DNA of 32,929 bases from Eledone cirrhosa (lineage: Eukaryota). The stretch is from positions 1 to 32,929 of the forward strand of contig CAXHJY010001614.1 of NCBI GenBank assembly GCA_964016885.1. The letters are read 5' to 3'. This document shows, piece by piece, positions 21,741-23,290 of the stretch. The notes beneath the pieces were generated by a model. It ran no database searches and had not been told where the DNA came from. It saw only the letters and a list, made by a program, of their open reading frames with translations. Numbering within the stretch: the first letter of the stretch is position 1; every line of letters starts with the position of its first letter. A program made the translations under genes and the position numbers.

Positions 21741-21902
21741 AACGAAGGAAATGTGGTAAGGAACCAGGTGGACCATAACGCACCAAAGTACTCAATACTT
21801 GAGGTAGTAGAGTGGGTAATAGGAACCAGTAAGACCCCGACAGCTGAGCTCAAGCCGTTTCGACGGCTTGAGCTCAGCTGTCGGGGTCTTACTGGTTCCT
21901 AT
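21741..21902 (-). mobile_element. PLE-like terminal remnant family 2, copy 1: 40-bp-arm hairpin plus tail
   Basis: Arms 21819-21858 and 21863-21902 around TTCG. Tail 21741-21818 is the reverse complement of 23213-23290. Contains the HHR 3' half GAA-ACGGC/ttgagctca/GCTGT-C. Confidence 0.7.
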
Positions 21903-22182
21903 ATATATATATATATATATATATATATATGTGTGTGTGTGTATATGTGTATATATATATATATATATATATATATATATATACATACACACACACACAC
22001 ACACACATATATATATATATATATAATTACATAAACGGAGAAAGCTATTAGCGGTACTCCGACCAATTTCCAACTCACTCGACAAACATTAGGAAATACC
22101 GGAGTATATTCCTAATTAAACGTTTGGGGTGCTAACTATATTGTATTGTGTGGATACTTGGTTGTATTATTTTATATGAGAT

Positions 22183-22375
22183 GAAGGTGGGTTGGCAGTA
22201 TCGGTAGAGAGTCGGACACCATGCTTTGCAGCATAGAGTTACGGTCCTTTACGGTCTGAGTTCAAATCCCACCGAGGTTAACTTTGTCTTTCATCCTTAC
22301 GGGGTCGATAAAATAAAGTACCAGTAATGCACTGGGTATTTGCTGGTCTTGTGCCAAAAGTAGAAACAATTATTT
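22183..22375 (+). mobile_element. Full-length tRNA-derived SINE, unit 1 of a tandem pair
   Basis: A box tggcagtatcgg, B box gagttcaaatccc, (ATT) tail, flanking 17-bp direct repeat. Confidence 0.9.
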
Positions 22376-22385
22376 TATATGAGAT

Positions 22386-22583
22386 ATGAGGGTGGTGGAT
22401 TGGCAGTATCGGTAGAGGGTCGGACGCCATGCTTTGACGCATAGAGTTATGGCCCTTGCCATTCTGAGTTCAAATCCCGCCGAGGTTAACTTTACCTTTC
22501 ATCCTTGTGGGGTCGATAAAATAAAGTACCAGTAATACACTGGGTAATTGCTGGTCTTGTGCCAAAAGTAGAAACAATTATTT
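22386..22583 (+). mobile_element. Full-length tRNA-derived SINE, unit 2 of a tandem pair
   Basis: Same boxes and tail as unit 1, with multiple substitutions. Confidence 0.9.
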
Positions 22584-22687
22584 TATATGAGATATATTAA
22601 AGATCTCATTTCCCAAATGAATCATTTCATGGTAAGGTTTCTACACGGTGGGTGAAATTATACCAAGTTCTGTAGAAACTTGCGTAA

Positions 22688-22740
22688 GATCGATGGTTTC
22701 TTATGCAAGTGGGTTCTTACAAATCTTCAGTGGGTGCCCA
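22688..22740 (-). ncRNA. Partial hammerhead motif (5' core, stem II and part of stem III)
   Basis: CTGAAGA-TTTGTAAG/AACCCA/CTTGCATAA-GAA-ACCATCGAT; no 3' partner for stem I is visible. Confidence 0.4.
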
Positions 22741-23095
22741 AGTAATATCAATATTAATAACTAAATCAATATATATATATATATATATATATATACACAC
22801 ACACGCATATATATATATCCAGGATAACCGTTGATAAAAGGCCACGGAAAACAATACTCAATCCATTGCAACAAAGCACATTTAGTCCAAAACACAATGT
22901 TCACACAGACATATTAAGTGTATGAAACATTTGTAATAAAGAGTTCATACAATGACGTCTTGTCTGTAGCTTCCAGAGTAGTTTATTGTAATAAATCTAA
23001 TATTTTGAGTTGTTATAACGTCTTCATGAATCTCTATCTGGTTTCATATTTGAAAATGACTTATTCTAAATATATATATATATATATATATATAT

Positions 23096-23290
23096 ATAGG
23101 AACGAGTAAGACCCCGACGGCTGAGCTCACGCCGTTTCGACGGCTAATTCTGGTCCAGAATTAGCCGTCGAAACGGCGTGAGCTCAGCCGTCGGGGTCTT
23201 ACTCGTTCCTATTACCCACTCTACTTCCCTAAGTATTGAGTACTTTGGTGCGTTATGGTCCACCTGGTTCCTTACCACATTTCCTTCGTT
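23096..23290 (+). mobile_element. PLE-like terminal remnant family 2, copy 2: perfect 58-bp-arm palindrome plus tail
   Basis: Arms 23096-23153 and 23155-23212. HHR 3' half GAA-ACGGC/gtgagctca/GCCGT-C. (TA)n on both sides. Confidence 0.7.

Follow-up and report, generated by a model that had tools for sequence, protein, structure and literature searches.

Fold-back insertions in (TA)n tracts of Eledone cirrhosa that very probably derive from the ends of Penelope-like retrotransposons

The stretch of DNA analyzed here (hereafter the window) comprises 32,929 nucleotides of Eledone cirrhosa (contig CAXHJY010001614.1), is AT-rich, and consists mostly of microsatellite. Scanning the whole window for fold-backs yielded 7 matches, and the 3 that lie outside of microsatellites are two copies of one element (family A, copies 1 and 2) and one copy of another (family B). 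Each of these three contains an inverted 5'-truncated copy with a varying junction, and each outer end is a 3' end of the element, with the end of a tail on one side and the tail boundary on the other. They are all flanked by (TA)n on both sides, so that any target-site duplication is unreadable within these microsatellites.

The two copies of family A are oriented opposite to each other. Copy 1 comprises a one-sided tail on the minus strand (21741-21818), which forms the 3' end of the element and contains a TTGAGTACT motif, a sense arm on the same strand (21819-21868) with the end of a stem II 3' arm, CGAAA, stem III, a GUC site, and GGGGUC, and a 40-bp inverted short arm on the plus strand (21863-21902) that runs up to a fixed stop and is followed by (TA)n. 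Its axis is carried by a pre-existing hairpin (21853-21868, loop at 21859-21862). Copy 2 comprises a 58-bp inverted short arm on the minus strand (23096-23153) with the same stop, a single unpaired base as its axis (23154), a sense arm on the plus strand (23155-23212) from which CUGANGA is missing, and a plus-strand tail (23213-23290) with its motif at 23236. The 3' half of its hammerhead spans approximately 23162-23198 with a predicted cut after 23192, and the family-wide tail boundary falls at 23212/23213. The basic anatomy set out in an earlier note on this DNA was reproduced throughout: the arms of copy 1 (21819-21858 and 21863-21902) pair at 40/40 positions around a TTCG loop and those of copy 2 at 58/58 around a single unpaired T, either short arm stops in ...GTTCCTAT before entering (TA)n, and the one-sided tail measures 78 nt in either copy. 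The probability that a perfect 40-bp fold-back arises by chance anywhere in the window is about 4e-19.

The third fold-back belongs to a sister family (family B, 21469-21668), was absent from the earlier note, and lies 70 nt from copy 1. It is built from 66-bp arms with 1 mismatch (21536-21668) and a one-sided tail of 67 nt that contains a TTGAGTACC motif (21469-21535, minus strand). A complete type I hammerhead (core at 21596-21558) lies on its sense arm (21536-21601, minus strand), with a 5-bp stem I (GAUUC/GAAUC), the stem III pairing ACAG/CUGU, and a GUA site, while the single mismatch of the inverted 66-bp short arm (21603-21668, plus strand) hits this core, so that CUGAUGA reads CUGGUGA there. 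Only an 11-nt block of the tail and the general layout are common to families A and B. The two families share a single (TA)n tract (21469-21902), about 70 nt apart and equally oriented.

Beyond these fold-backs, the window contains three unfolded copies of a further element, family C. One has a complete hammerhead and a TTGAGTGCT motif (13752-13960, minus strand), another lies about 40 nt from copy 2 (23332-23523, minus strand), and the last one (25221-25412, plus strand) has the core but did not pass the strict stem scan. Stem II of family C shows two compensatory pairs, stem I is 8 bp long, and the tail motif is the same as in families A and B. The strict hammerhead scan gave 3 matches in the window, one in family B and two in family C, compared to 0.07 on average across 30 block shuffles. 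Downstream of the cut, all 6 copies in the window carry TTGAG(C/T)(A/G)C, a motif that was defined after the fact and whose looser form turns up in 1-2% of shuffled-tail trials. The (TA)n tracts appear as repeated landing sites, with family B beside family A and copy 2 beside a copy of family C.

The surroundings contain several other repeats. SINE-like repeats are found at 22166-22595 (two tandem copies, 89% alike), 16597-16728, 7624-7704, and 400-472, and the pair at 22166-22595 presumably resembles an octopus SINE. A LINE-like 3' fragment, truncated and set between TA runs (19622-20097, minus strand), which we take to be RTE-like, shows a weak match to DUF6451 (E 0.0008, below the cut-off). 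Two 450-bp repeats that are 94% identical (14002-14451 and 19092-19540) each contain a minus-strand frame resembling a C2H2 zinc finger and are probably the 3' ends of another retroelement. At 22640-22740 (minus strand), CTGAAGA is followed by hairpin-like sequence, which did not pass the strict scan and may represent the decayed hammerhead of a further family.

Inspection of the family A arms supports their reading as a retroelement end with a type I hammerhead that is preserved in its 3' half. As the earlier note had described, stem III (ACGGC/GCCGT, with GCTGT in copy 1), the palindromic loop TGAGCTCA, and the GTC site are present and CTGANGA is missing from both copies. These copies can therefore not be active ribozymes by themselves, because half of the core is missing. 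The note had further predicted that longer copies carry GACCC-CUGANGA upstream, and this was not confirmed in the sole consensus of a longer subfamily that is visible upstream of 23162: this loose-end consensus, a mixture built from 1523 and 1602 reads with agreements of 0.75 and 0.71, shows a possible stem II without CTGANGA where it would be expected. As RNA, truncated family A folds into a competing GCCGU-CGAA-ACGGC hairpin instead of stem III. Of 9 stretches of arms and tails, 8 folded as RNA with no more stability than their shuffles (z between -0.93 and 0.80), and one family C copy reached z -2.0. A search of 21000-24000 against Rfam listed 69 matches with E values of up to 10; not one of them reached the gathering score, and no hammerhead family was represented.

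The fold axes lie at different positions, and only one of the three (copy 1) can be compared with native sequence. The earlier note had placed the axis of copy 1 on a hairpin that pre-existed in the element, and this was borne out after correcting the size of the hairpin to 6 bp in copy 1 (AGCCGT/ACGGCT; -6.6 kcal/mol as DNA). No other hairpin of 5 bp or more is found in the 58 positions before the stop, so that an axis at this place would be met by chance in about 1 in 58 instances, though this is a single case. The axis of copy 2 is probably located in the putative stem II loop of the hammerhead, as we infer from the layout, and that of family B falls on the 5' edge of stem I; the spacer is 1 nt long at two of the three axes. 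All of them are found upstream of the cut (by about 22, 39, and 45 nt) and none at the cut site itself. We therefore rejected the idea that the axes are set by cleavage of the ribozyme, in agreement with the finding that cleavage is dispensable in vitro for a Penelope-like element (PLE) as given in the consulted parts of PMC11167929. The tail boundary follows the predicted cut by 20 nt in family A and by 22 nt in family B.

Sequencing reads were aligned to 23155-23290 at 80% likeness for 4 of 23 listed runs, leaving out runs with a small share of matches; no RNA run was among the 23. Aligned sequences numbered 23,114 of 12,467,656 reads in run X21, 23,922 of 12,785,554 reads in X22, 15,117 of 17,142,217 contigs in X1, and 38 of 8,254,286 contigs in X5. 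Family A is thus very abundant in the reads, with these counts giving abundance and not copy number. Past 23212, loose ends (judged from 22 of 489 entries) read into (TA)n in 3271 reads of X21 (23% of local depth) and 2821 of X22 (19%), as well as in 59 contigs of X1 and 1 of X5; the orientation of such reads is not visible, so they are not proof of inverted arms, and they may include RAD duplicates. Since about one fifth of the reads crossing 23212 enter (TA)n, the stop of the short arm is a family-wide endpoint, and the arm endpoints are fixed instead of random, just as the earlier note had it. The strand-switch joint at 23155 was found in the raw reads of two further samples (8 reads with 1 start; 7 reads with 2 starts) and in 8 contigs of X1, which may be the source sample, while no joint matching the axis of copy 1 was seen among the 15 of 18 joints listed. 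Read ends pile up at 23159 (AATT; 7014 and 7154), probably as the restriction end of RAD libraries, and these roughly 7000 ends per run hide the upstream part of the element in the reads. Other loose ends, at 23198 and 23206, stem from a diverged subfamily (GGGGTC-CTGAATCTTTTCCTAT) that stops at the same tail boundary and for which one contig consensus, with an agreement of only 0.52, hints at another palindromic loop 3 (AGATCT).

The same reads bear on the differences between the two family A copies, which amount to 6 of 127 shared positions, with 3 of them in the arms and mirrored there. The earlier note had taken such mirrored variants to be copy-specific. The mirroring is real, but the arm letters of copy 1 are common in the family: these three are found in 84%, 13%, and 17% of aligned X21 reads, and all six differing letters of copy 1 are common alleles (13-96% of reads). 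Mirrored variants are therefore weaker evidence than claimed. Only the G of copy 2 at position 23178 is a rare letter, found in no more than 2-3% of reads.

Taken together, we consider it very probable that the fold-backs derive from a PLE, and copies 1 and 2 are likely dead 5'-truncated PLE ends with a mirror arm built at insertion. An anatomy of inverted copy plus tail is already described for PLEs, so the fold-backs are mostly ordinary in this respect. An adjacent inverted 5'-truncated copy, a tail of 30-40 bp at one end, and a bias for (TA)n are reported in PMC8557442, and an identical anatomy is found in PMC3846280 (2013), where palindromes at the junctions are taken as a sign of self-priming on an antisense template. 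The window copies closely resemble these complex EN-bearing PLE insertions (PMC3846280; Fig. 2 of PMC8557442), which have the same head-to-head truncated copy, tail at one end, palindromic junction, and microsatellite target, but they differ by the lack of an ORF and of a readable target duplication and by tails that are longer (78 and 67 nt) than the published 30-40 bp. In addition, PMC4209133 describes PLE hammerheads whose loop 3 is palindromic and notes pairs on opposite strands at close distance, and PLEs are abundant in Octopus vulgaris (PMC13282606).

Membership of the Hydra clade seems slightly favored by the hammerhead layout and the tail motif. Insertion into (TA)n and a canonical 3' hammerhead are both found here and are typical of this clade but not exclusive to it, given that Neptune and Naiad likewise target (TA)n (PMC8557442). 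The parse of the family B hammerhead (CTGATGAT / TGAA ACAG..CTGT A) equals the table of the clade in PMC8557442, and distances from cut to end are similar (98 and 89 nt here versus about 97 nt in Hydra-2_Amil and about 88 nt in Hydra-2_Ajap, counted by hand). Penelope-13_HM of the same clade likewise carries an inverted truncated copy (PMC8557442). In contrast, stem III of family A is longer (5 bp, with a 9-nt loop), and the defining characters of the clade are motifs of its protein (RWK, DKT, and a CxCX5C linker, without CCHH). The motif GAG(C/T)(A/G)(C/G) is shared with published Hydra consensus ends: by eye, GAG-Y-A-S follows the hammerhead in 4 of the 6 Hydra consensus 3' ends in the consulted parts of PMC8557442. 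Hydra-1_Obim and Hydra-1_Ajap stop 36-46 nt past the cut without the motif there, which fits a tail-less start site, and one of these two carries the motif near its 5' start.

Searches for coding capacity or longer copies were negative. As one would expect of truncated copies, the 96 stretches of the window that were translated gave no reverse transcriptase (RT) or GIY-YIG match, and a 44-codon open frame across the element had no homologue among 13 candidates (weak evidence) and no match in Pfam. Pattern scans for longer copies returned 0 matches each in viral, metagenome, and genome contig data. Loci sharing a 14-mer (41 viral, 11 metagenome) were dismissed as chance since none of these 52 match the element over more than 27 nt. 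Four motifs of the window had 0 matches in the supplement of PMC8557442, suggesting that the window elements belong to families other than the published ones, and the motifs were also missing from the supplement of PMC13282606.

How PLEs form inverted junctions and second strands is stated to be open in PMC8557442 and PMC11167929, and the main text of the latter, as far as consulted, offers no mechanism for inverted junctions. In the same work, the PLE protein is shown to cut both strands and to extend them, and the tail is bounded on either side by an RT start site, both measured for the anole PLE PAc (Poseidon, Anolis). PAc and the window copies are alike in having a hammerhead upstream of a tail with two fixed ends, an AT-rich target, and ends that are not set by the ribozyme cut site; the ORF of PAc overlaps hammerhead and tail, whereas the 44-codon frame of the window is without homologue. 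On this basis, we tentatively favor a route by which two cDNAs started at both ends of the tail are joined near the hammerhead. The PLE RT/GIY-YIG protein would nick both strands of a (TA)n tract, with the first nick priming reverse transcription at the outer end of the tail and the second at its inner boundary. Copying one transcript in the direction of its 5' end, both cDNAs would then come to a halt within the structured hammerhead, where their 3' ends would pair via a small pre-existing palindrome (copy 1) or be joined end to end before each is completed on the other. The outcome would be fixed outer ends, a variable axis, and identical arms, and CUGANGA would be lost by joining downstream of it. 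We favor this route because it needs the fewest new assumptions if both outer ends are RT start sites as in PAc, though the published tails of 30-40 bp and the identity of the arms, which snap-back explains more simply, speak against it, as do the upstream consensus without CTGANGA and the lack of a joint at the axis of copy 1 among those listed. It is conceivable, if rather unlikely, that a TGAG(C/T)(A/G)(C/G) signal in a long (67-78 nt) Hydra-type tail positions the RT between two start sites, with the hammerhead as a stall-and-join point and not as a cutter and with each cDNA templating the second strand of the other. Neither the tail motif nor the model of joining from two starts was found in the literature searched, in which subscription and older Penelope papers are poorly covered.

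A close rival that would leave the same final sequence, and which we regard as plausible but less probable, is that a single PLE cDNA snaps back on an internal hairpin, extends itself, and stops or is nicked at the tail boundary. The earlier note had suggested such self-priming from the axis of copy 1, and the position of that axis on the only hairpin of such length before the stop does speak for it, as do the complete identity of both pairs of family A arms, including the rare allele of copy 2, and the interpretation of junction palindromes as self-priming in the consulted parts of PMC3846280. However, snap-back alone does not explain the sharp family-wide stop, which needs an extra cause here and follows directly from a measured second RT start site, and the 1-nt spacer at two of the three axes cannot as such be a hairpin loop; there is one testable case. 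That the palindromes instead arose or were homogenized after insertion, by hairpin repair or gene conversion between arms, would fit arms that are near-identical even though the two copies differ from each other, but a fixed stop at two loci and genome-wide is not expected of host repair, family B has retained its mismatch, and homogenization is unneeded given that the differences between copies are mostly standing family alleles; we consider it improbable.

Still less probable is an origin from another non-autonomous element such as a MITE or foldback DNA transposon, a SINE, or a tandem retrozyme, whatever the TA context, hairpin shape, and lack of coding capacity may suggest. A MITE or foldback transposon was rejected for its lack of fixed terminal inverted repeats, since the outer ends are unrelated to each other and the axis varies, and hammerhead and tail match PLE ends instead. 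Non-LTR retrozymes share the type I hammerhead and palindromic loop 3 with PLE hammerheads and the window copies (PMC4209133; bioRxiv 10.64898/2026.07.22.740005, each as far as consulted), but they form tandem units, while single dispersed copies are found in the window. Perfect palindromes between microsatellites assemble poorly, yet a fold-back artifact of assembly or library preparation is very improbable because the 23155 joint recurs in raw reads and X1 contigs; moreover, the palindromes stop at the same base of the element amid unrelated flanks, and the arms of family B are mismatched.

As sequence, these insertions are ordinary retroelement debris, and their value lies in the material that they provide for the mechanism of PLE junctions. 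The motif in common with Hydra ends and tails of about twice the published length are leads in this regard. Fold-back stubs of this kind also risk being mislabeled as MITEs or miRNA hairpins, and sub-threshold Rfam matches to miRNAs were indeed seen. Because the family is abundant and has a fixed tail boundary, arms that are short and perfect, and diagnostic alleles of its subfamilies, two rival mechanisms can be told apart by counts within one assembly. If a tail signal with stalling and joining at the hammerhead is true, the statistics of such junctions would yield a sequence-level model for inverted PLE insertions.
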